64,000 bases of DNA from Haliangiales bacterium (GTDB lineage: Bacteria; Myxococcota_A; Polyangia; Haliangiales; SHYZ01), in assembly GCA_035259575.1 (NCBI GenBank), contig DATFWE010000009.1, forward strand, positions 29,800-93,799, given 5' to 3'. This document shows, in pieces, positions 10,581 to 27,889 of this stretch. The stretch's first letter is position 1. Each line of letters begins with the position of its first letter. Below the pieces are notes generated by a model. The model searched no databases. It was not told the DNA's origin and saw only the letters and a program-made list of their open reading frames with translations. Position numbers and translations under genes: made by a program.

Positions 10581-11689
10581 TTGTCACCCGCTTTCTTCTT
10601 CTGCTGCTGCGCGTCCTTCTTCTTCTTGCGCTCGAGCGCCTTCTGCTCGCGCTCGATGCCCTTCTGCGCGGCGGCGATGTGATCGTCGACGATCGGCACG
10701 CCGCCGGGCCCCGCCCGCTGCTTGTACTCGGCGAGGAACTTCTGCGCGCTCTGCATGCGCGGCAGCCCGTCGAGCCCGGGGAACGGATCCGCGTCGAGGT
10801 AGAGGATCCCCAGGTTGAAGTACGCGGGCGCGTAGCCGGGGTTGATCTGCTGCGCGAGCTTCAGCTCCATCTCCGCCTTGCGCAGGAGGGTGTCGCGCGC
10901 CGTCGGGTCGTCGGCCGAGCGCCCGCGGTAGGCGGCGCCGAGGTAGGTGTGCGCGCGCGCCGACTGGCTCTGGAGCGACACGAGCCGCTCGAACACGTTG
11001 ACGGCGTCGGCGTAGCGCTTGCGCTTGAGGTAGATCGTCCCCTTGTTGTGGAGCGCGGCGATGTAATCCGGCCGCAGGGACGTCGACCGTTCGTACGCCG
11101 ACAGCGCCTCGTCCTCGCGGTGGGTGCGGTCGTAGGTGAGACCGAGGAGCATCCACAGGACCGGGCTCTGGTCGCCCTCGCGCTGGCGCTTGGCGATGGT
11201 GAGCACCGCCTCGACCTTGTCGTCGTACCCCTTGAGATAGTACGCGTGCGCCAGCCGGATCATCGCCGGGACGCTGGACTCGTCTGCGTCGAGCGCGGCG
11301 CGGGCGGCGCGCATCGCCGTGTCGGCGTCGCGGGCCTTGAGCGCCTGGTCGGCCTTGCGCAGCTGCTCCTGGACGATGGCTGAGCGCTTGTCCGCCGGCA
11401 GATCCAGCGTCGGCGGCTTGGGACCCGTCAGGGCCGGAGCGGCGGGCTCCGGCGCGGGCGGAGGAGGAGCCGGCGTCGCCGTCGCCGGCTGCGGCTCGGG
11501 CGGAAGGTCGGTGTAGGTGACCTCGGCGTCGCTCGCGGGCTTCGGCGCCGCCGCCTTCGCGGCCGGCGTCGTCGGCTGCCGGGCCGGCTTCGAGCCGCCG
11601 CAGGCCGCCAGCGCCAACGCCCACGTCAAGACACACCACCGCACGGACGTACCGACGCGTGAGCCCGAGAAACGATCTGGCGGGCTCAT
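10577..11689 (-). CDS. TPR-repeat lipoprotein (GltE/AglT/NfsE-like)
   Basis: Lipobox LALAACGG and a Pro/Ala-rich linker, followed by several TPR units (..AMIRLAHAYYLKGYDDKVEAVL.., ..IAALHNKGTIYLKRKRYADAVNVFE..). The ATG at 11689 overlaps the upstream TGA (ATGA). The upstream part of the 1428-aa track ORF is shadow frame. Confidence 0.7.
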   Translation of the reverse strand: MSPPDRFSGSRVGTSVRWCVLTWALALAACGGSKPARQPTTPAAKAAAPKPASDAEVTYTDLPPEPQPATATPAPPPPAPEPAAPALTGPKPPTLDLPADKRSAIVQEQLRKADQALKARDADTAMRAARAALDADESSVPAMIRLAHAYYLKGYDDKVEAVLTIAKRQREGDQSPVLWMLLGLTYDRTHREDEALSAYERSTSLRPDYIAALHNKGTIYLKRKRYADAVNVFERLVSLQSQSARAHTYLGAAYRGRSADDPTARDTLLRKAEMELKLAQQINPGYAPAYFNLGILYLDADPFPGLDGLPRMQSAQKFLAEYKQRAGPGGVPIVDDHIAAAQKGIEREQKALERKKKKDAQQQKKKAGDK

Positions 11690-14600
11690 GGATTCTGCTC
11701 CTTGTCCACGAGCTCGTCCCGCTGGACCGGATACTGGTCCGCGGCGATGTACGAATTCAGCCGCTGCTGCGCCAGCTTGGACCACTCGTTGGCCACACCT
11801 GCCTTCTTGGCCGTTTCGACCGCGCGCAGCCATTGTTTCTTGGCGAGCTCGGTGTTGGGCGCGACCTGCTGCTCCAGGCTCTCCTGGTAGGACCCGAGCA
11901 CATTCTGTTCGGGATACTGCTTGTCCAGGCGCGTGATCTCGGCCGGCACTGGAGCGTCGAGGAGCTTCTGCCCGGCGAAGAACGCGATGTCCCCCAGGCG
12001 CACGATCGCCGCCAGCGACCACGACGCCTCGAACCGGGCCACCGCCTCGTAGCCGGCCGACGTCGCCTTCGCCACCTTCTGCAGCTCGTCGATGGTCTTG
12101 ACCACCGCCGCCGAGGCGCGCGTCTGGTTCTTGTCGGCGATGTTGCCCAGCCAGCGCACCTTGTACTTCTCGAACTCCTTCTTGTAGTACTGCTCGGCCA
12201 GCCAGAACTGCGCCTCCCCCGCCAGCTCCGACGCCGGCGACGCCGGCTTTTCCCCCGATTCGTCGTACGCGCGGATCGTCGCCTTGTAGTACTTGTCGGC
12301 GGCGTCCTTGTCGCGCGCCTTCTCCATCGCCTTCGCCGTCTTGTGCTGCGCCAGGACGAGCTTGAACCCGGCGCCCGCGTCCTTGCCGTACTGGCGCTTC
12401 CACTGGTCGAACGTGGCGATCATGTCCTTGGTGTTGCCGGCCTTCTCGTAGACGAGCGCCGCGTTGAAGAAGGCGTCGCGCGCCCGCTCGCGGTTCTTCT
12501 GGTCGAACGCAGCGTAGCGCTTGTACAGCGTCGCCGCGCCCGGGTCGTTCTTGCCCCGGTCGTAGTAGACGCGATCGAGATCGCGCAGGAGCGCCGCGTT
12601 GTAGAGCGCGTTCACGCGCGCCTCCTCGAGGTTGAACTCCGGCCGCGATGTGCGCCCCGGCTTGGCCGCCTCGTCGACGACCTGGAGGTACGTGTCCACG
12701 GCCGCCTCGTAATCGAACGCTGCCTGGTAGGACTCCGCAGTGCGGTAGAGCGCCTCGATGTAGTACTCCGACTTGGCGAACTCGGGGACCTTGACGAATT
12801 CCTGGTACAGCGCGACGGCCGTCTTGGGCTTGCCCGCCTTGGTATAGGCGAGCGCCGCGTTGAACATCGCGCCGGCGCGATCGGCGAACACGTCCGTGCC
12901 CGCCTTGTACAGGCCGTAGAACCGCTGCCCCGCCTCGTCGAACCGCCCGTCCTTGTAGGCGTTGATCGCGACGGTGTACTCGTTCGACAGCTTCTGCTTC
13001 TGCGCGACGAGGACGTCCTGCGGCGTCGACCCGCACTTGTCGCCGATGAACTTGTCGGCGGTCGCCTGGAACTTGTCCGTCTGCCCTCGCCCCTGGTAGA
13101 TGGCCAGCATGCCCTCCTTGGCCTGCACCGCCTCGGAGGTCTTGCAGTACGTCGTCATGATGCCCTGGAAGCGGGCGAGCGCGTCGTCGAGCTGGACGTG
13201 GCGGTAGGAGATCATCGCCGCCGCCAGCGCCTTCTGCGACGCCGTGGAATCGTTCGGCACCAGCTTGGCGTACTCGTCGTAGGCGCCCTGGAGGTCCCGG
13301 TACAGCGACGGGACCGACAGCGAGCGCGCGCCCTTGGCGAACGTCTCGGGCGTCGGCACCGGCGGCTCCTTGAGCGCCCCCTGGGCCTTGGCCTGGGCCA
13401 CCGCCTCCTCGTACGCCTTGACCACCGAATCCGCGGCGTCGTCGTGGTACTTGGTGCCGAGCTCCTGGTGGTCGCGCACCCACCGGTAGCGCTCGACCGA
13501 GGCCACGTACTGCTCGCTGAAATAGAGGCAGTCGGCGAGGCGGTAGGTCACCTCGTAGGCGTCGGACGAGTTGGGAAACTCCTGCAGGTACGCCTGGTAC
13601 AGGTTGGCCGCCTCGGCGTAGAGGCGCAGGTAGCCGCGCTTCCCGTCGGGCGTCGGCGCCTTCTGGTACTGCTGCTTGGCCAGCTGCGCGCTGCGGTGCT
13701 GGTTGCGCGCCGCCTCGATCAGCGAGCCCTCGGTGAGGCGGCTGGCGTTGTCCATCGCCTCGCGGTTGGTCTCGTTCGCCGTGTACCACGGGGTGCCGCG
13801 CTTGTACGCCGTGGCCAGTCTCGCCCGCTCGTCGCCCGCCGCCTGCGCGTCGCCCATGAACGCGAGCGCGTCGACGATCTTCTGGTGCACGACGGGGTTC
13901 CTCGGGTGGGTCGGGTAATGATCGAGCGTGAACCGCCAGGCGTTGATCGCCTCGCGGTAGGCGGTGCGGATCTCCGGCGGCACCTCGCCCCCCGGCGGCG
14001 TCCCCGCGGACAGGCGCAGGACGTCGCCGACCTGCTCGTAGACGTCGCGCACGTGCCGCTCGTTCGTCCGGCCCTTGTAGAACGCGTTCAGGCGCTCCAT
14101 CGCCTTCACCGGGTCGGACAGCGTGTTCTCCTCCCACGGGTCGGTGAAGCTGATCGCCAGGTACTGCACCGACTCGCCGCGGAGATCGTTTTTCGGCTGC
14201 CCCTGATCCTCGAGCTTGTCGGAGTAGGCGACCAGCTCGTCGAACGCCTGGATCCCGTCCATGAACTGGTTGTTGCGGTAGTAGGACCAGGCGAGCTTGT
14301 AGAGCGCGATGTCGTAGAACTTGGACTTCGTGTTGTGCGCGACGCGCTTGTAGGCGGCGATGGCGGTGGGCAGCGAGCCGGGCGTGTCGAAGTCGATCTC
14401 GCCGACGCGGATCCAGCCCTCGTCGATGAGGTCCTGGTTCTGCGTCATCGGCTCGCAGCCCTGGTATGGGTCGACCGTCTGCGGCCGCGCGCCCGCGGCC
14501 AGGCGGCGGCGGAGCTCGCGCGGATCCGGCGGAGGCGGCGGCGTCCCCAGCGGGTCGAACTTGTTCCGGCACACGAGGCCCAGGAACGCCTGGCGCGACT

Positions 14601-15207
14601 CGGGCGTCTGGCGCATCTCGCCGCGGTAGTAGGCGTATAGGTAGATGGCCCCGTCGACCTGCCGGTACTTCGGGAACCGTTCGTTGATCTGCCGCCAGAT
14701 GTCGAGGGACGGCGTGTAGTCCGGCCCCGCGTACTGCGGCGGAGCCTCGGGGTCGACCGGCGGCGGCGGCGTGTCGGCGGAGGCCGCCTCCTTCTCGTCC
14801 CACTCCCACTTGGCCTTGTCGAGGTAGAGATCCGCCAGGCGGAACATCGCGTCCGGCGTCCACTTCGGATCGTCGGGGTACTTGACGAGGAACTTCTGCA
14901 ACGCCTCGAGCGCGCTCATGTGACGCGCGCGGTAGTCCTTCTCCGCCCCGTCCATCGCCTTGTGGTAGCGCTCGGCGGCTGCCCTCACCTTGTCCTGGTA
15001 CTCGCGGCGGAGGATGCCGCGCATCTGCTCGACGTGGTCGCCGACGGCGCCGGCGTAGCGATCGGCGTCGCGCTCCACCTCCTTGAGCACATCGAGCTCC
15101 TGCGGGGTGAGCTCGCGCGGCGGCGCCCCCGGTTTGGGCCTCGGCGGCGCGGGCTGCTGCTGCGCCCAGGCCGTCGACGCGACCAGCGCAATGAGGAGCG
15201 CCATCAT
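11686..15207 (-). CDS. Large periplasmic TPR protein (GltD/AgmU/NfsD-like), about 1173 aa
   Basis: Signal peptide MMALLIALVASTAWAQQ starts at 15207. TPR-like helical repeats run throughout (..FRLADLYLDKAKWEW.., ..ALYKLAWSYYRNNQFMDGIQAFDE..). Size and position between the GltC-like and GltE-like genes fit. The 66 codons upstream in the track ORF are the repeat element, not protein. Confidence 0.75.
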   Translation of the reverse strand: MMALLIALVASTAWAQQQPAPPRPKPGAPPRELTPQELDVLKEVERDADRYAGAVGDHVEQMRGILRREYQDKVRAAAERYHKAMDGAEKDYRARHMSALEALQKFLVKYPDDPKWTPDAMFRLADLYLDKAKWEWDEKEAASADTPPPPVDPEAPPQYAGPDYTPSLDIWRQINERFPKYRQVDGAIYLYAYYRGEMRQTPESRQAFLGLVCRNKFDPLGTPPPPPDPRELRRRLAAGARPQTVDPYQGCEPMTQNQDLIDEGWIRVGEIDFDTPGSLPTAIAAYKRVAHNTKSKFYDIALYKLAWSYYRNNQFMDGIQAFDELVAYSDKLEDQGQPKNDLRGESVQYLAISFTDPWEENTLSDPVKAMERLNAFYKGRTNERHVRDVYEQVGDVLRLSAGTPPGGEVPPEIRTAYREAINAWRFTLDHYPTHPRNPVVHQKIVDALAFMGDAQAAGDERARLATAYKRGTPWYTANETNREAMDNASRLTEGSLIEAARNQHRSAQLAKQQYQKAPTPDGKRGYLRLYAEAANLYQAYLQEFPNSSDAYEVTYRLADCLYFSEQYVASVERYRWVRDHQELGTKYHDDAADSVVKAYEEAVAQAKAQGALKEPPVPTPETFAKGARSLSVPSLYRDLQGAYDEYAKLVPNDSTASQKALAAAMISYRHVQLDDALARFQGIMTTYCKTSEAVQAKEGMLAIYQGRGQTDKFQATADKFIGDKCGSTPQDVLVAQKQKLSNEYTVAINAYKDGRFDEAGQRFYGLYKAGTDVFADRAGAMFNAALAYTKAGKPKTAVALYQEFVKVPEFAKSEYYIEALYRTAESYQAAFDYEAAVDTYLQVVDEAAKPGRTSRPEFNLEEARVNALYNAALLRDLDRVYYDRGKNDPGAATLYKRYAAFDQKNRERARDAFFNAALVYEKAGNTKDMIATFDQWKRQYGKDAGAGFKLVLAQHKTAKAMEKARDKDAADKYYKATIRAYDESGEKPASPASELAGEAQFWLAEQYYKKEFEKYKVRWLGNIADKNQTRASAAVVKTIDELQKVAKATSAGYEAVARFEASWSLAAIVRLGDIAFFAGQKLLDAPVPAEITRLDKQYPEQNVLGSYQESLEQQVAPNTELAKKQWLRAVETAKKAGVANEWSKLAQQRLNSYIAADQYPVQRDELVDKEQNP

Positions 15208-15401
15208 TGTTGCACCGCCGGCTCGCGTCCGCGCGGGGGCTCCAGGTCGCGTGGCTGCGCCTCGCTCCAGGGTCGCGCCCGTCCGCGCTTCCGCTCGCCA
15301 GCTCGTGGTTGCACCGCCGGCTCGCGTCCGCGCGGGCGCTCCAGGTCGCGTGGCTGCGCCTCGCTCCACGGTCGCGCTCGGCCGCGCTGCCGCTCGCCGG
15401 C
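15208..15401. repeat. Tandem dimer (2 x 95 nt, joined by TCGT) of the junction repeat family also found at 21627-21720 and 23191-23284
   Basis: Both copies carry (t/g)gttgcaccgcc...ccaggtcgcgtggctgcgcctcgctcca(g/c)ggtcgc... and fill the whole gap between the stop at 15402-15404 and the start at 15205-15207. The dimer is flanked by TCAT on both sides. Confidence 0.85.
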
Positions 15402-17747
15402 TCATGGCTTCTCTCCCGGCTTGGGCGGCTCCGCCTGCTTGTCCTGGATGACGTCGCGAAACTCCGCCTCGAGCGTGTTCTTCTCGCGCGCGAAATCGAT
15501 GCGCAGGCGGTCGGCGTACTTCTGCGCCTGCTCCTTCTGCGCCCACGTCACGTCGAGGAGCCCCACGTCGGAACGGACCACGAAGTCCTTGAACTTCCGC
15601 GCGACGCGCCCGAACGACCCGGCGACAACGTCGGAGCCGACGTCCACCGTCTCGCCGTCGTAGCTGCCGAGCTGCTGCTGATAGCCCACCAGCGCCGCTT
15701 TCTCCTCGGCGATCGCCACCTTGACCTCGCGGAGCTGCCCCTCCACCGCCTGGTCGATGCGGCCGTTGACCCGGCCCACGGTTTGCTCCACGTTGTCGGC
15801 GCGCGCGAGCTGGGACTCGATGTCGCGGACGCGCCCCGCCGAGTCGCCGCCGGCGCGCGACGCGGCCCGCGCGACGACGTCGTGCTCGGCCTTCACGGCT
15901 GCGCGCATCTGCTTCCGCAGCTCCTGCTCCTCGAGGGCCAGCTCGTCGCCGATTCCGGCCTCGTCCGCCGCCAGCTCGGTCTCGTGGTGGAACTTCTCGA
16001 GCTGGCCCCGCAGCGCGGCGATGTCGTCGCGGATCGGCTTGCGCTCGCGCTCGAACTGCTCGGGCGTCATCTTGACCGGCTGGGTGGCGTAGTAGCGCTC
16101 GAGCGCCACCATCTGCGCCTCGAGGCTGTACAGGAACACCTCCACCTCGGTGGCGCGCTTGTCGATCTCGTCCACCGCCTCGCGCGCCTTGCGCTGGCGC
16201 TCCTCGTAGGCGTCGCCGCTGTTGGGCAGCGCGGCGAGCTTGCGCGCCAGCCCCTCGCGCACCGCCGCGACGCGCTGGAGCTCCGCCTGCTCTCCCGCCG
16301 ACAGGCTGCCGAGGACGAGCACGCGCTCCTCGTTGCCGAGCGATGTGCGGACGCGCGTCAGCCCCTCCTGGATCTCCTCCGCCTGGGCGCGCCGCGACGC
16401 CAGCTCGGGGAAGATGCGCACGCGCGACGGCGACGCCACCGCGCGCTCGAGGCGCGCGATACCCTTGGCCGCGTCGTCGAGGTCGACGCGCACCTCGTCG
16501 AGCGTCTTGGTCACGCCGAGGACGCGCCCGGCCTCCGGATCCTCCTTCACCGCCTCCAGCGCCGTCTTGGGCACCTCGATCTGGACGTCGAGCGCCTCCC
16601 CCCCCTTGCCCGTCAGCGCGTTGAAGTATGCCCTGCGGTCGCCGTGCGCAGCCAGGAGCTTGTCGATCTCGTCCTTGCTCTTCTGATAGGTGTCGCGCAT
16701 CTGCTCGAACGTCGTCGTCGCCTTTGCATACTCCTCGCTGGTGTTGCCGAGGCCCTCGGCGCCGATCCCCTGCGCCTTGCGCAGGCGGAGGTTCCCCTCG
16801 AGGAGGCGGATCTCCGGCAGGTCCGACGCCTTGGGGCTGGCGAGCTGCAGGAGCTCGAGCGCGCGCAGCGCACGGTCGTACTGCTTGGCCTTCACGTAGG
16901 CCCAGGCGATCTCCTGCAGCGCGTCGCCGAATGCGGGCGACCGCCGGCTGATCGCCTGGTAGGCGTCGATCGCCTCCTGCGTCTGATTGCGCTCGTAGAA
17001 CACGCGCCCCAGCGCGAGGCGCGACAGCTCCACGATCATCTCCTCGTCCTTGTTCTTCGTCGGCTCGCGCGTGACGCCCTGGAACGCCTTGGCCGCGGCT
17101 GCGAGGTCGCCCTTCTGGGCGTGGGTCACGCCGATGAAGTAGTGCGCCTGCATGGCGTAGGACGACGTCGGCGGGATCGCCTCGAAGAACCGCAGCGCTT
17201 CGTCGTAGCGGCCGGCCGAGTAGGCGTACTTGCCGCGCACGTAGGGCACCGACTCGAGCGCCTTGCCCGCCGGGAGGCGGTCGAGGCGGGCCAGGTAGTC
17301 CTGGATGCGGGCCGGATCTTTGGTGCGGACGACGAGCTCGACCAGGCGCCCCAGCGCCTCGCCGTAGTGCGGCGAGCTCTCGCCGAGCGTGTCGATGACC
17401 TTGTGGAAGTAATCGCGGGCGAGGAGATTGTCGCCCTTCTTGAACAGGCAGTCGGCGAGGAAGAACAGCGCGTCGGGGTACGAGCGCGTCGTCGCGTGCT
17501 TCTCCACGACGTCGTAGAGGAGGACGGCCGCATCGTCGTAGTGGCCCACGCCGTACAGGACCTGCGCGCGGATGAGGCGGCGCTCGGCCATGTCGGCCTC
17601 GTTCTCCTTGGCCGGGGTCAGCTTGGCGAGCCCGTTCTCGAGCTCGATCGCCCGCTGCTCGAGGTAAGACAGCCGGCTTTGCGGATCCTCCTGCGCCTGG
17701 GCCGCCGCGGCGAAGCCGAGGGCGGCCACCCAGAGGAAAGCTCTCAT
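15402..17747 (-). CDS. Periplasmic TPR plus coiled-coil protein (GltC/NfsC-like)
   Basis: Signal peptide MRAFLWVAALGFAAAAQAQ. The N-terminal half holds TPR units (..AQVLYGVGHYDDAAVLLYDVV.., ..MQAHYFIGVTHAQKGDLAAAAKAFQ..). The C-terminal half is long coiled coil. It lies directly upstream of the GltD-like gene. Confidence 0.65.
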   Translation of the reverse strand: MRAFLWVAALGFAAAAQAQEDPQSRLSYLEQRAIELENGLAKLTPAKENEADMAERRLIRAQVLYGVGHYDDAAVLLYDVVEKHATTRSYPDALFFLADCLFKKGDNLLARDYFHKVIDTLGESSPHYGEALGRLVELVVRTKDPARIQDYLARLDRLPAGKALESVPYVRGKYAYSAGRYDEALRFFEAIPPTSSYAMQAHYFIGVTHAQKGDLAAAAKAFQGVTREPTKNKDEEMIVELSRLALGRVFYERNQTQEAIDAYQAISRRSPAFGDALQEIAWAYVKAKQYDRALRALELLQLASPKASDLPEIRLLEGNLRLRKAQGIGAEGLGNTSEEYAKATTTFEQMRDTYQKSKDEIDKLLAAHGDRRAYFNALTGKGGEALDVQIEVPKTALEAVKEDPEAGRVLGVTKTLDEVRVDLDDAAKGIARLERAVASPSRVRIFPELASRRAQAEEIQEGLTRVRTSLGNEERVLVLGSLSAGEQAELQRVAAVREGLARKLAALPNSGDAYEERQRKAREAVDEIDKRATEVEVFLYSLEAQMVALERYYATQPVKMTPEQFERERKPIRDDIAALRGQLEKFHHETELAADEAGIGDELALEEQELRKQMRAAVKAEHDVVARAASRAGGDSAGRVRDIESQLARADNVEQTVGRVNGRIDQAVEGQLREVKVAIAEEKAALVGYQQQLGSYDGETVDVGSDVVAGSFGRVARKFKDFVVRSDVGLLDVTWAQKEQAQKYADRLRIDFAREKNTLEAEFRDVIQDKQAEPPKPGEKP

Positions 17748-20195: not shown

Positions 20196-21626
<1,431 letters not shown>

Positions 21627-21720
21627 TGTTGCACCGCCCCCTCGCTCCGGCGCGCCGCTCCGGGTCGCTCGGCTGCGCCTCGCTCCAGGGTCGCTCGTTG
21701 GCGCGCCTCCGCTCGGGGGC
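21627..21720. repeat. 94-nt structured junction repeat (gatA|gatB)
   Basis: It fills the intergenic gap exactly and is flanked by TCAT at 21623-21626 and 21721-21724. It shares tgttgcaccgc and the core ggtcgctcggctgcgcctcgctccaggg with the 23191 and 15208 copies. Terminal imperfect inverted repeats lie at 21636-21656 and 21700-21720. Confidence 0.85.
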
Positions 21721-23190
<1,470 letters not shown>

Positions 23191-23284
23191 TGTTGCACCG
23201 CTCGCGCGCGACGGCTCGGGGCGCCAGGTCGCTCGGCTGCGCCTCCCTCCAGGGGCGCCTCTCTCCTCGCCGTCGCGCGCTCGC
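23191..23284. repeat. 94-nt structured junction repeat (gatC|gatA)
   Basis: Same length, same conserved blocks at the same offsets as 21627-21720, and flanked by TCAT (23187-23190, 23285-23288). The inverted-repeat arms (23200-23215 and 23269-23284) differ in sequence from the other copy but still pair. Confidence 0.85.
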
Positions 23285-23572
23285 TCATTTCTCGATGATT
23301 CGCGGCACGACGAAGAAATCGTCGACGCGCGCGGGCGCGGCGGCGAGCGCCTCGTCGGCGGACAAAGACGGCGCGGCCGCGTCCTCGCGCAGGGGGCAGT
23401 CGAGCGGCACGGCATGCGTCATCGGCTCGACCCCGGTCGTATCCAGGGCCTGCAGCTTTTCGACGTAGGCGAGGATGCTCTGGAGCTCCCCGCGCAGGCG
23501 CTCGGCCTCGGCCGCGCCCAGGCGGAGGCGCGCCAGCCCGGCCAGCTCCTCGACGTCTTCCCGGGTGATCAT
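23285..23572 (-). CDS. gatC: Glutamyl-tRNA(Gln) amidotransferase subunit C
   Basis: 95 aa. [30 protein letters not shown] is the typical GatC pattern. It lies upstream of gatA. Confidence 0.9.
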
Positions 23573-25012: not shown

Positions 25013-25867
25013 GTGTCGCGTTCCCGCGTCTTTTTGACCCAGGCCGTAGTTTGCGCGCTGCTCTGCGCGGCGTGCACCGGCGCGACCGACGTGCGCCCCG
25101 TCCCGGACGCGGGGGGGCGGAGCTACGCCCGCCTCACGGTGGTGGCGACGGGGACGTCCGTGGCCGTGACCGGGCGGCTGCTCCGCTACAAGAACCTCGA
25201 CGCCGACAGCGCGCAGATCCTGGCCGGGGCGCCCCCGTACGAGGGCGCGCTGCCCGGGGCGTGCATGCTCATCGACGAGGAGACGCTGCTCGACCTGGCG
25301 ATCTCCGGGACGTCCCCCGACGCCTCGGTGCGCCTGCTCGATGCCGGCGAGGTGCTGGTGCGCGCCGCCGGCCACGCCGTGCGGCTGCCCCCGCGCTACG
25401 TCCCCGAGCTGCTGCCGTTCGTGAGCGGCGTCGCCTACACAGCGGAGACGGGCGCCGACACGGCGGCGGACCCGGTGCCGACGGAGGTTCTCGTGTCCGC
25501 GTTCGGCGGCGAGGACGTCGGCGCGTTCTCCGCCGCAGCCGAGCTGCCGCCGACCCCGCGCATCACCAGCGTGGGTGAGCCGGCGCGCGGCTCGTCGCTC
25601 GACCTGGCGTGGGAGGGGCGCGGCTCGGGGACGGTCGACCTCGTGGTCACGCGCGACGCGGGCCGCTCGGTGCGCTGCCGCGTCGCCGACAACGGCCGCT
25701 TCTCCGTCCCCGCCCGCGCGCTGGGGCCGTTGTGGGACGCGGGGCGCTCCGACGTCGCGACCGTGTCGGTCGAGCGCTCGCTGCGGACGCCGTTCTCCGC
25801 GCCCGGGCTCGACGGCGGCGACGTGGTCGTCGTCGCGCGAGACGCGGCGACCGTCCGGGTCCCCTAA
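25013..25867 (+). CDS. Hypothetical lipoprotein
   Basis: Lipobox VVCALLCAACTG. Balanced composition over 284 aa. No family motif recognised. Confidence 0.6.
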   Translation: MSRSRVFLTQAVVCALLCAACTGATDVRPVPDAGGRSYARLTVVATGTSVAVTGRLLRYKNLDADSAQILAGAPPYEGALPGACMLIDEETLLDLAISGTSPDASVRLLDAGEVLVRAAGHAVRLPPRYVPELLPFVSGVAYTAETGADTAADPVPTEVLVSAFGGEDVGAFSAAAELPPTPRITSVGEPARGSSLDLAWEGRGSGTVDLVVTRDAGRSVRCRVADNGRFSVPARALGPLWDAGRSDVATVSVERSLRTPFSAPGLDGGDVVVVARDAATVRVP

Positions 25868-26059
25868 AAACAAACAAGGAATTCGAACAAGGAATTCGAA
25901 GTCGAACGGGGGAGCAGAGAGGGCCGCTCCCGAGCAGCGAAGCGCCTCGCCGGCATTCGAATTTCGAACGGGGAAGCACAGAGGGCCTCCCGCGAGCACG
26001 GAAGGCCCTCTCCGGCATTCGAATTCGAATTCCTTGTTCCTTGTTCCTTGTTCCTTGTT
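25868..26059. repeat. AT-richer palindromic/tandem repeat block in a convergent intergenic region
   Basis: The left arm has ACAAGGAATTCGA twice (25874-25899). Two ~61-62-nt tandem units lie at 25895-25955 and 25956-26017, each TTCGAA..TCGAACGGGG..hairpin..CCGGCA. The right arm is TTCGAATTCGAATTCC plus four copies of TCCTTGT (26018-26058), the inverted complement of the left arm. Confidence 0.8.
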
Positions 26060-27889
26060 CTATTCGACCACCCGCAGCACCGGGCCGGTGCCGTCGTCGC
26101 CGGCGCGCTCGGGCGCGACGACGACCCGATTCCGCCCCTCGCGTTTGGCGCGGTAGACGGCGCGGTCGGCCGCGCCGATGAGCGCAGGCTCGTCGGCGCC
26201 GTGCGCGGGGTACGCGGCGACGCCGATCGAGGTGCGGACGATCGCCCCCACGGTCTCCGCGCCGTTGTCGACGATGATGTGCTCGGCGCCGGCGCGAATG
26301 CGCTCCGCCACCACCTGCGCGCCGGCCAGATCCGTATCCACCAGCAGCACGACGAACTCCTCGCCGCCGTAGCGGATGACCGCGTCGCCGTTGCGGACGG
26401 TGTTGTGGAGGAGCGCCGCGAACGCCACCAGCGCCCGGTCGCCCACCTGGTGGCCGTGGCTGTCGTTCACTTGCTTGAAGTGGTCCAGGTCGCACACGAG
26501 CACCGCGAGCGGGCGCTTGCGCCGCGCCGCCACGCTGAGCTGCTTGGCCAGATACTCGGACAGGAAGGCGCGGTTGTACGCGCTGGTCAGGCTGTCGCGC
26601 AGCGCGCGCTCGCGCGTCGACGACAGGAGCCGGATCGAGCTCAACGTCGTCGACGCGAAGTTGATGTAGCCCTGGCTGCCCTCGAGGGACTCGCGCGGGA
26701 AGCGGCCGCGCTCGGTCGATTGCATGTTGACGATGCCGACGAGCTCGCCCGCCGACACCATCGGCACGCAGCAGTAGGATCCCGCTTCGGGCACGCCGAG
26801 CGGGCAGGCGCACGCGACCGGCGCATCGGAGTCGGCGCTCACCGGGCGGAGCGTGCGCACCGCGCGGCAGCGCATCGGCTCGGACAGGATGGGGTGATGG
26901 CCGACCTCATCCGGCGGCAGTGGCCCCGGCCAGGTCACCTCCAGCCGGTTGCGGCTGGCGTTGCGGACGAGGATCTGGAGCTTGTCCGGCGCCATCGTGT
27001 CGTCCAGCGTGCGGGCGAGCGCCTGGTGGAGCTCGTGCTCGTCGACGAGCTGCTGCACGAACTCGCCGAAGGCGTTGAACGCCACCGCGCGCGCGTGCGC
27101 CTGGGCGCGGGCGCGCTCGCGCTCGCGCGCGGTGCGATCGAGGTCGTGCAGCGCCTGCTGCAGACCGGCGACCTCGCGCACCTTGACCCCCGCCCCCGGC
27201 GCGGCGAACGGCTCGCCGGCGCTGGCCTTGCGCTCGAGCTCGGCGAGCGGTCCGGCGGTCCGGCGCAGGAACGCGCGCATGATCCACAGGCCCATGACGA
27301 AGACGAGGGCGGTGACGCCGTGGCCGATGAGGCGCGCCTCCTGGATGAGGCGATCCGCGCGCGCAATCGCCGCCTCGGAGATGTCGCGCAACACATCGCT
27401 GAGCTCCGCGTGCGCGGCGCGCACGCGCTCGAACAGGCGCTTGCCCTCGATGAACGCGGCGGGGAGGTCCTGGATCGGCCCCTTCTCGCGCGCCCAGATC
27501 TGGGGCGAGGCGTAGGCAGTGATCCAATCCGCCGTGGCGTCGTCGACATCGTCGAGGAGCTTGGACACGCGCTCGCGCTCCCCGTCGAGGAGGAGGCGCG
27601 CGAGCTGGAGGCGCGCGTCGCGCGCCGCGTTCCGTCCCGTCTCGTAGGGCTCGAGGAGGCGCCGGTCGCCGCTCGCCAGGTAGCCGCGCAGGCCGACCTC
27701 TTGGTCGACGAGGCCGAGCAGGCGCGCGCGGGCGGACGCGGCGATCATGTCGTGGCGGACGACCGCGGCGCGGCGGTCGTCGGCGGCGCGAAGGACCCGT
27801 TCCGAGGTGAGGACCGACACCGCCGCCCCGCCGAGCAGGATCCCGCCCATTCCGGCGAGGAGCATGGCGCGCAGGGACCAGCGGAACAT
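26060..27889 (-). CDS. Diguanylate cyclase with CHASE3 sensor, GAF-like domain and GGDEF domain
   Basis: The start MFRWSLRAMLLAGMGGILLGGAAV (TM) is at 27889. CHASE3 pattern ..GLRGYLASGDRRLLEPYE... A second TM follows, then a GAF-like region and a GGDEF domain with RYGGEEF. An RxxD I-site (RNGD) lies 5 residues upstream. The rest of the 1253-aa track ORF is shadow frame over the next gene. Confidence 0.9.
   Translation of the reverse strand: MFRWSLRAMLLAGMGGILLGGAAVSVLTSERVLRAADDRRAAVVRHDMIAASARARLLGLVDQEVGLRGYLASGDRRLLEPYETGRNAARDARLQLARLLLDGERERVSKLLDDVDDATADWITAYASPQIWAREKGPIQDLPAAFIEGKRLFERVRAAHAELSDVLRDISEAAIARADRLIQEARLIGHGVTALVFVMGLWIMRAFLRRTAGPLAELERKASAGEPFAAPGAGVKVREVAGLQQALHDLDRTARERERARAQAHARAVAFNAFGEFVQQLVDEHELHQALARTLDDTMAPDKLQILVRNASRNRLEVTWPGPLPPDEVGHHPILSEPMRCRAVRTLRPVSADSDAPVACACPLGVPEAGSYCCVPMVSAGELVGIVNMQSTERGRFPRESLEGSQGYINFASTTLSSIRLLSSTRERALRDSLTSAYNRAFLSEYLAKQLSVAARRKRPLAVLVCDLDHFKQVNDSHGHQVGDRALVAFAALLHNTVRNGDAVIRYGGEEFVVLLVDTDLAGAQVVAERIRAGAEHIIVDNGAETVGAIVRTSIGVAAYPAHGADEPALIGAADRAVYRAKREGRNRVVVAPERAGDDGTGPVLRVVE

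Follow-up and report, generated by a model that had tools for sequence, protein, structure and literature searches.

The window, that is, the whole 64-kb stretch of DNA that was analysed, carries on its minus strand the genes gatC, gatA and gatB, the coordinates of which are given in Table 1 together with those of the other features. The GatB, GatA and GatC products were identical to HKA86242, HKA86243 and HKA86244, respectively, of the public MAG 'Haliangiales bacterium' and the gene boundaries matched exactly, so the gene ends given here follow the public annotation. The sense strand of gatC ends with GAG AAA TGA, the TGA being the complement of positions 23285-23287, and the ATG of gatA is the complement of positions 23188-23190, which leaves a gap of 94 nt (23191-23284) between the stop and the start. 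A preliminary description of this DNA had placed 94 nt between the two codons at these same positions, and both the coordinates and the public annotation agree with it. The TCAT that it had reported on both sides of the gap was found on the plus strand at 23187-23190 and 23285-23288; on the sense strand this is ATGA, a stop/start overlap present twice, and the junction reads GAGAA ATGA (94 nt) ATGA GCCTCC. The gap between gatA and gatB (21627-21720) is likewise 94 nt long and is flanked by ATGA on either side, and its conserved blocks are those of the gatC/gatA gap, at identical offsets, as had been claimed. Comparison of the two gat copies over the unit of 102 nt that extends from ATGA to ATGA showed that they are 77% identical. 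The unit is defined in this way throughout, and the inserted DNA is 94 nt plus one ATGA (about 98 nt).

Table 1. Genes, copies of the repeated element and parts of the gatC/gatA copy in the 64-kb window.
Feature	Positions	Strand	Details
gatC	23285..23572	minus	95 aa
gatA	21721..23190	minus	489 aa
gatB	20196..21626	minus	476 aa
Element copy at the gatC/gatA junction	23187..23288	minus	102 nt; covariance-model score 93.7 bits
Mini-ORF of the gatC/gatA copy	ATG 23286-23288 to TGA 23187-23189	minus	33 codons, from translation
5' ATGA	23285..23288	minus	gatC stop TGA 23285-23287 overlapped by the mini-ORF ATG 23286-23288; empty site in L092
Long imperfect hairpin	23200..23284	minus	sense positions 5-89 (about 85 nt); from folding and covariation
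Outer arms of the hairpin	23269-23284 and 23200-23215	minus	
Conserved apical core of the hairpin	within 23200..23284	minus	CCTGGAGGGAGGCGCAGCCGAGCGACCTGG, with GGC-GCA-GCC tip
Unpaired 3' tail	23187..23199	minus	GGUGCAACAAUGA; SD-like GGUG 5 nt before the gatA ATG 23188-23190, which is overlapped by the mini-ORF stop TGA 23187-23189
Element copy at the gatA/gatB junction	21623..21724	minus	103.5 bits; 94-nt insert 21627-21720; own mini-ORF; empty site in L097
Tandem pair of element copies	15204..15405	minus	two 99-nt periods; junctions ATGA, ACGA, ATGA

The pair of gat copies described earlier was confirmed, but the count for the window is four, since the tandem pair of Table 1 belongs to the same family. 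On one side of it is a 781-aa TPR gene, which has its stop at 15402-15404, and on the other is a 1173-aa TPR gene that encodes a signal peptide and starts with the ATG at 15205-15207; a location between bamA and skp was ruled out, the neighbours on both sides being TPR proteins. The core and tail patterns each gave four matches in the window, compared with 0.46 and 0.30 expected, respectively. A covariance model built from the four copies and run without filters on the whole window gave 92 to 108 bits for the copies and 19.5 bits for the next best match in the 64 kb. No Rfam family matched the element in the window, with only chance-level matches (E > 1) within 21500-23400, and a scan for promoters and terminators returned nothing at the element copies and no terminator-like site at any of them. 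An intrinsic terminator has a G+C-rich hairpin followed by a U-run, whereas the tail of the element is GGUGCAACAAUGA.

In the whole 64-kb window, no tRNA gene or other Rfam family was detected at the gathering threshold. A different repeat from that of the gat junctions is located at 25866-26070, an AT-richer intergenic stretch with nested symmetry. It has (AACAAGG)x2 and GAATTCGAA motifs on its left side, two 62-nt direct repeats in its middle (25902-25963 and 25964-26025, 84% identical) and TTCGAATTCGAATT and (CCTTGTT)x4-5 on its right side.

We then compared the gat junctions of the window with those of relatives, which were found by a search for GatC homologues, followed by examination of their contigs. 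The closest relative, the GatC of which is 91% identical and which is represented by four contigs (L092 to L095), each from a different sample, has a 4-nt overlap between gatC and gatA, atcatcgagaaATGActcccgtg, with no element. A relative with a GatC 84% identical (L097) has an overlap between gatA and gatB, cacaccATGAcgtgggag, also with no element. The filled site of the window corresponds to the relatives' empty site plus 94 nt and a second ATGA. Because the junctions of close relatives are empty and have a single ATGA, the gat copies are insertions accompanied by duplication of the ATGA, and the presence of two insertions in the gatCAB operon, which had been proposed from the window alone, was established for both junctions. 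About 98 nt were inserted exactly at the ATGA stop/start overlap of translationally coupled genes, and the TGA of gatC and the ATG of gatA were kept.

Examination of the same contigs showed that the junctions differ in their occupancy. At its gatA/gatB junction, L092 carries a tandem of two units, the identity of which is 90% to the gatC/gatA copy of the window but only 76-77% to its gatA/gatB copy; element occupancy is not orthologous between the window and L092. At the same junction, L094 has at least three units. The units are located at 5757-5957 in L092 (two units) and at 4262-4503 in L094 (at least three, the contig ending in the third), and the inter-unit junction is ATAA, not ATGA. This difference in unit number between L092 and L094 looks like that of a VNTR, with counts that are uncertain in short-read assemblies. 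The gatC/gatA junction of L097 has a 64-nt remnant that is truncated at its 5' end. The GatA of L097 has 501 aa compared with 489 aa in the window, and the extra 3' sequence of its gene (2780-2814), gcaccATGGCGAGCGGACACACCATGA, resembles the head of the element fused to its tail; this extension of gatA may be what a deleted element left behind, translated now as additional C-terminal residues.

In a syntenic contig (L099), at least two units follow the second TPR gene, a position that is unoccupied in the window, and the site that corresponds to the window's tandem pair, between the two TPR genes, has no element. This TPR/TPR junction was not counted as a clean empty site, as it has no ATGA overlap and the genes have diverged. 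The short-read contigs on which the window's gatC and its 781-aa TPR gene are found (L004 and L098, Logan SRR5262249) each end inside the element, which is consistent with a high-copy repeat breaking the assembly. The empty sites, the remnant, the varying unit numbers and the contigs that end in the element lead us to conclude that gain, loss and change of copy number occur over short evolutionary distances.

The family is not confined to the window. When metagenome contigs were scanned with the 21-base core, 87 loci were obtained, mostly from soil; nhmmer found 118 matches in them, of which 81 are near-full copies that amount to 75 distinct units. The metagenome units fall in 95 arrays, 16 of which are made of two to four units. 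Among the 185,579 species-representative genomes of GTDB, the pattern GGCGCAGCCNNGCGACCN{20,36}GGTGCAAC gave three chance matches, all inside unrelated coding sequences; this core-plus-tail pattern was probably too strict, because many family members are without the GGTGCAAC tail. A scan of viral contigs for the element gave nothing, and neither a transposase nor another mobilising gene was found in the examined loci of relatives and family copies. Analysis of the ends of the 75 units showed that 40 start with ATGA, GTGA or TTGA and 38 end with ATGA or GTGA, while 29 have one of the three tetranucleotides at both ends, and 21 of these 29 are exactly 102 nt long. In about a third of the units, NTGA is absent from both ends; these have a stop codon of their own and, in the tail, a real Shine-Dalgarno sequence, e.g. 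GAAGGAGaccgcgATG.

Several members of the family have an unusual structure. In a subfamily (L100, 8471-8626, and L060, 951-1106), a 54-nt G+C-rich hairpin is nested in the apical core, for a total of 156 nt. The L100 copy is located between two mevalonate-pathway genes and was called as a 51-aa ORF with a 4-nt overlap with both neighbours. Another locus (L085) has its upstream flank and the left half of its element in common with L061, and the right half and downstream flank in common with L034 and L056; this mosaic resulted either from recombination between copies or from chimeric assembly through the repeat.

Folding of the sense RNA of the gatC/gatA copy gave -55.2 kcal/mol (z = -3.6), and none of 200 shuffled sequences folded as well. 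All four copies of the window form a single long imperfect hairpin (-50 to -55 kcal/mol) that leaves the 13-nt tail unpaired; over the 75 copies, the last 9 nt of the unit are unpaired at 90% on average. The stem is broken by symmetric GA/GA internal loops, and the tip is GGC-GCA-GCC. Tandem 5'-GA-3'/3'-AG-5' mismatches and GNA triloops are stabilising motifs in RNA and DNA alike. The arms of the gatA/gatB copy differ in sequence from those of the gatC/gatA copy, and the fold bears out the earlier observation that they nevertheless pair. The sense strand was more stable than the antisense strand for 60 of the 75 copies with RNA parameters and for 67 of the 75 with DNA parameters.

The preliminary description had taken this pairing of differing arms as a sign of selection on a hairpin instead of chance similarity, and had named covariation over more copies as the check. 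We first counted covariation on a model-fitted alignment of 73 distinct copies, in which 18 of the 26 pairs, with 122 cells in total, had changes on both sides; shuffled alignments gave 26 +/- 4 and registers slid by one to three columns gave 14 to 46. Because such an alignment leans towards the model, the count was repeated on a MAFFT alignment of 65 units that was made without reference to structure. The nested hairpin was obtained again when RNAalifold was applied to it, and its full ladder of 31 pairs had 123 cells changed on both sides, compared with 35 +/- 4 in shuffled and 32 to 51 in slid alignments; 19 of the 20 outer-arm pairs covaried. The non-Watson-Crick cells are mainly tandem G.A/A.G (192), with G.U (18) more frequent than A.C (7). 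Both counts are far beyond the shuffled and slid-register controls: the hairpin is maintained across the family and the resemblance of the gat copies is not due to chance. The apparent invariance of the core is in part an artefact of the search, because the metagenome copies were retrieved with the exact 21-base core pattern. In the second unit of L099, which was found by another route, both G.A positions of the core are converted to C-G and G-C pairs.

We next determined the orientation of the element relative to its flanking genes, which were called by GC by codon position. Of the upstream genes, 45 of 51 are on the strand of the element (p = 2e-8), and so are 46 of 49 downstream genes (p = 7e-11). 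Both flanking genes are co-oriented with it in 36 of 43 arrays and both are opposite in none. Nearly all copies thus point in the same direction as the genes on either side of them. The TGA of the 5' NTGA serves as the in-frame stop of the upstream gene in 18 of 45 arrays, and the ATG of the 3' NTGA as the start of the downstream gene in 25 of 46.

Translation of the gatC/gatA copy from the ATG that overlaps the stop of gatC gave a mini-ORF of 33 codons that ends at the TGA overlapping the ATG of gatA, and the gatA/gatB copy has the same arrangement. The distance from ATG to ATG is 98 nt, or 2 modulo 3, and it is this that results in an ORF of 33 codons with its start on the upstream stop and its stop on the downstream start. 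The upstream gene, the mini-ORF and the downstream gene are in three different frames in the gat copies. The 5' TGA is preceded by A in 32 copies, by G in 16 and by T in 5; as C was never seen at this position, a possible start codon is completed in every case. All 29 coupled-type units have an open ORF, and the variant with the 54-nt nested insertion still has an in-frame ORF that overlaps both neighbours by 4 nt.

Termination and re-initiation were simulated on the 15 distinct arrays with both NTGA junctions. The relay was complete in 14 and broken in none, including arrays with units of non-standard length (92+98 and 99+98), although most relay-type copies simply have the ancestral 102-nt length and the cases with indels are too few for statistics. 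The remaining array is an in-frame fusion, the tandem pair of the window (99+99 nt), where the frame is open through both 99-nt units and continues in frame into the downstream signal-peptide gene. Two 101-nt units are out of frame. The relay is not universal, because the tandem pair is read in frame into the signal-peptide protein and about a third of the units are without NTGA ends. The ORF listing has an ORF at 11686..15546 (minus) that goes through the tandem pair, and a gene caller could wrongly extend the downstream protein by 66 residues.

Openness of the mini-ORF was dropped as a sign of translation, as the same inserts placed in reverse are equally open, with an in-frame ORF in 21 of 22 cases. 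For the same reason, the relay ORF does not explain the orientation bias: it would work either way round, and the bias must have another cause. An insertion mechanism that is orientation-specific relative to the non-palindromic ATGA is therefore one live possibility, and an asymmetry at the RNA level, that is, an unpaired SD-like tail beside the downstream start together with better folding of the sense strand, is another candidate.

The peptide encoded by the mini-ORF was also examined. Variability by codon position was 0.64, 0.74 and 0.72 bits, with no periodicity and no excess at third positions, and copies with compensating indels or a shift of one base (L066, L015 and L060) encode a different middle peptide. 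A profile of the doubled 33-aa peptide matched only 11 weak database proteins, one of them (P0129) from Haliangiales. From these patterns, the peptide is not the object of selection.

Taken together, these results are best explained, with a probability of about 0.7, by an undescribed, non-autonomous, MIRU-like mobile intercistronic repeat with a REPIN/MITE-like hairpin, in soil Haliangiales-like Myxococcota. Insertion with duplication of the ATGA, a maintained hairpin, sense orientation, tandem arrays and turnover between relatives characterise the family. A ribosome that ends translation of gatC could re-initiate on the mini-ORF and melt the hairpin while translating; termination on the AUGA would then be followed by re-initiation on gatA, and the two genes would stay coupled in spite of the insertion. 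Because the tail is unpaired and has GGUG 5 nt before the AUG, the gatA start could also be open to direct initiation, and GGUG may act as a weak SD. The mini-ORF peptide itself would be without function. The odds that ribosomes translate the mini-ORF and are passed on by it from the stop of the upstream gene to the start of the downstream gene are about even. The hairpin is probably kept because the element depends on it for its spread in single-stranded form, because a compact mRNA fold is tolerated, or both; a requirement for the hairpin in mobilisation as single-stranded DNA is weakly suggested.

A more specific version of this explanation, which we put forward tentatively and consider somewhat doubtful, is that the element is actively mobile in a strand-specific manner and recognises ATGA. 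It would move as a single-stranded hairpin that is cut and joined beside a guide-recognised tetranucleotide, in an IS200/IS605- or RAYT-like manner, with the stop/start overlaps of coupled genes as its natural targets. If so, the 98-nt length, the SD-like tail and the sense-only orientation would be adaptations that make insertion into an essential operon nearly harmless, and the origin of the element would be separate from that of the mycobacterial MIRUs.

The strong sense orientation, the better folding of the sense strand, the stability of the hairpin (-50 to -55 kcal/mol), the covariation of its arms and the presence of G.A or G.U instead of C.U or A.C mismatches would also be expected of a host-selected, REP/BIME-like cis-regulatory RNA hairpin that sets the mRNA levels of gatC, gatA and gatB as a block to 3' exonucleases or as a processing site for RNase III or E. 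However, close relatives are without the element at the same junctions, which makes it dispensable for gatCAB expression, copies are also located between unrelated genes (those for TPR proteins and the mevalonate pathway, and many others), the copy number varies and no Rfam family was matched; we consider it unlikely that such a role is the explanation. A cis-regulatory effect, such as the REP-type differential mRNA stabilisation raised in the preliminary description, would be compatible with the MIRU-like mobile repeat, as a selfish insert can have side effects of this kind, but the data do not require it. The features found here in addition to those of the preliminary description, namely the ORF overlaps, the duplicated ATGA, the sense orientation and the tandem arrays, speak for a mobile element of the MIRU-like kind more than for a regulatory hairpin of the host.

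Two other explanations were considered. The sequence is palindromic and its fold is favourable with DNA parameters too, as would be the case for a protein-binding or structural site in DNA (for a nucleoid protein or for gyrase, as in BIMEs, or as a cruciform) to which transcription and translation are irrelevant. Such a palindrome would have little reason to be in one orientation, yet 36 of 43 arrays are co-oriented on both sides, the mismatches are strand-asymmetric and the placement on the stop and start codons is exact; we regard this explanation as very improbable. The least probable, in our estimation, is a real small-protein gene encoding a repeated 33-aa Arg/Ala-rich peptide. Such a gene would agree with an ORF that is open in every coupled-type unit and with a conserved stretch of 12 residues, but conservation follows the nucleotide core without a third-position excess, the copies with indels or a shift change the middle of the peptide, the reverse complement is equally open and the database matches of the profile were few and weak.

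[quoted passage not shown] As summarised in PMC3184786, which cites Supply 1997, MIRUs are intercistronic elements of 40-100 bp with empty and filled sites, tetranucleotide direct repeats, G+C-rich inverted repeats and ORFs that overlap the adjacent genes; PMC12548453, also citing Supply 1997, describes this architecture in the same terms. On the features given in these summaries, the family shares with MIRUs the intercistronic position in operons with gene-like orientation (here 45 of 51 upstream and 46 of 49 downstream), the small ORF that overlaps the stop and the start of its neighbours with a spacing of -4 (here 33 codons, from ATGA to ATGA), the tetranucleotide direct repeats with empty and filled sites (here ATGA, with L092-L095 and L097 empty), the tandem arrays of variable copy number and the G+C-rich inverted repeats. 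It differs from them in its host, Haliangiales (Myxococcota) and not Mycobacterium (Actinomycetota), and in that the whole unit is one long hairpin with covarying arms and tandem G.A loops, which do not define MIRUs. The family is MIRU-like by architecture alone and is not filed as a MIRU, and sequence kinship to MIRUs is not expected. Our search of the literature found no such element described in myxobacteria and no 'MIRU-like' elements outside mycobacteria.

REPINs and REP-BIMEs (Bertels & Rainey 2011, PMC3116915) resemble the family as non-autonomous hairpins of about 100 nt with arm changes that preserve the hairpin and a conserved tetranucleotide 5' of the palindrome, and as abundant, lineage-restricted repeats that break assemblies and are intercistronic in mRNAs. 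In contrast to the family, which has one orientation, they are extragenic and in either or alternating orientation, with no seating on a stop and a start and no bridging ORF. A REPIN is made of two inverted short REPs (20-40 nt) with a GTAG-type head, whereas the family has a single hairpin with a 5' ATGA that doubles as stop and start. REPINs are defined by an associated RAYT gene, the RAYTs being REP-associated tyrosine transposases (PMC2817692). The Neisseria REP2 and the Borrelia upstream repeats, as presented in PMC3184786, are counted among the closest known systems; in that account, REP2 differs from the family in having a promoter and a location upstream of genes instead of one that bridges a stop/start overlap, and in having no duplicated ATGA.

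The family has the terminal inverted repeats and target-site duplication of MITEs, with arms beyond which 4 nt remain at the 5' end and 13 nt at the 3' end and a 4-bp duplication of ATGA. Rickettsia palindromic elements (RPEs) and ORF-compatible MITEs are palindromic mobile repeats that are read through by ribosomes and leave host genes intact. The family is similar to RPEs in being palindromic and in having a length and a composition that permit read-through by ribosomes, but RPEs are located within coding sequences, into which they insert, and are translated as part of the protein, whereas the family forms a separate ORF between genes, in a third frame.

These repeats have practical consequences for the study of soil Myxococcota. 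They break short-read assemblies, may serve as VNTR-like strain markers and could mislead gene callers, as annotations sometimes list the mini-ORFs as hypothetical proteins and arrays that are in frame can be taken for N-terminal extensions. The arrangement of a stop, a hairpin, a weak SD and a start resembles that of engineered bicistronic designs. For the biology of the family, the element would be a second, phylogenetically independent case of selfish DNA located on the ATGA overlaps of coupled genes, which is the strategy of MIRUs. With clean evidence of insertion from paired empty and filled sites and a strongly covarying hairpin, the family is tractable for two questions, namely how MIRU-type elements move and whether the relay ORF carries ribosomes across the insertion. 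Such a relay, if it is real, would allow gatCAB, or another essential operon with coupled genes, to tolerate an insertion.
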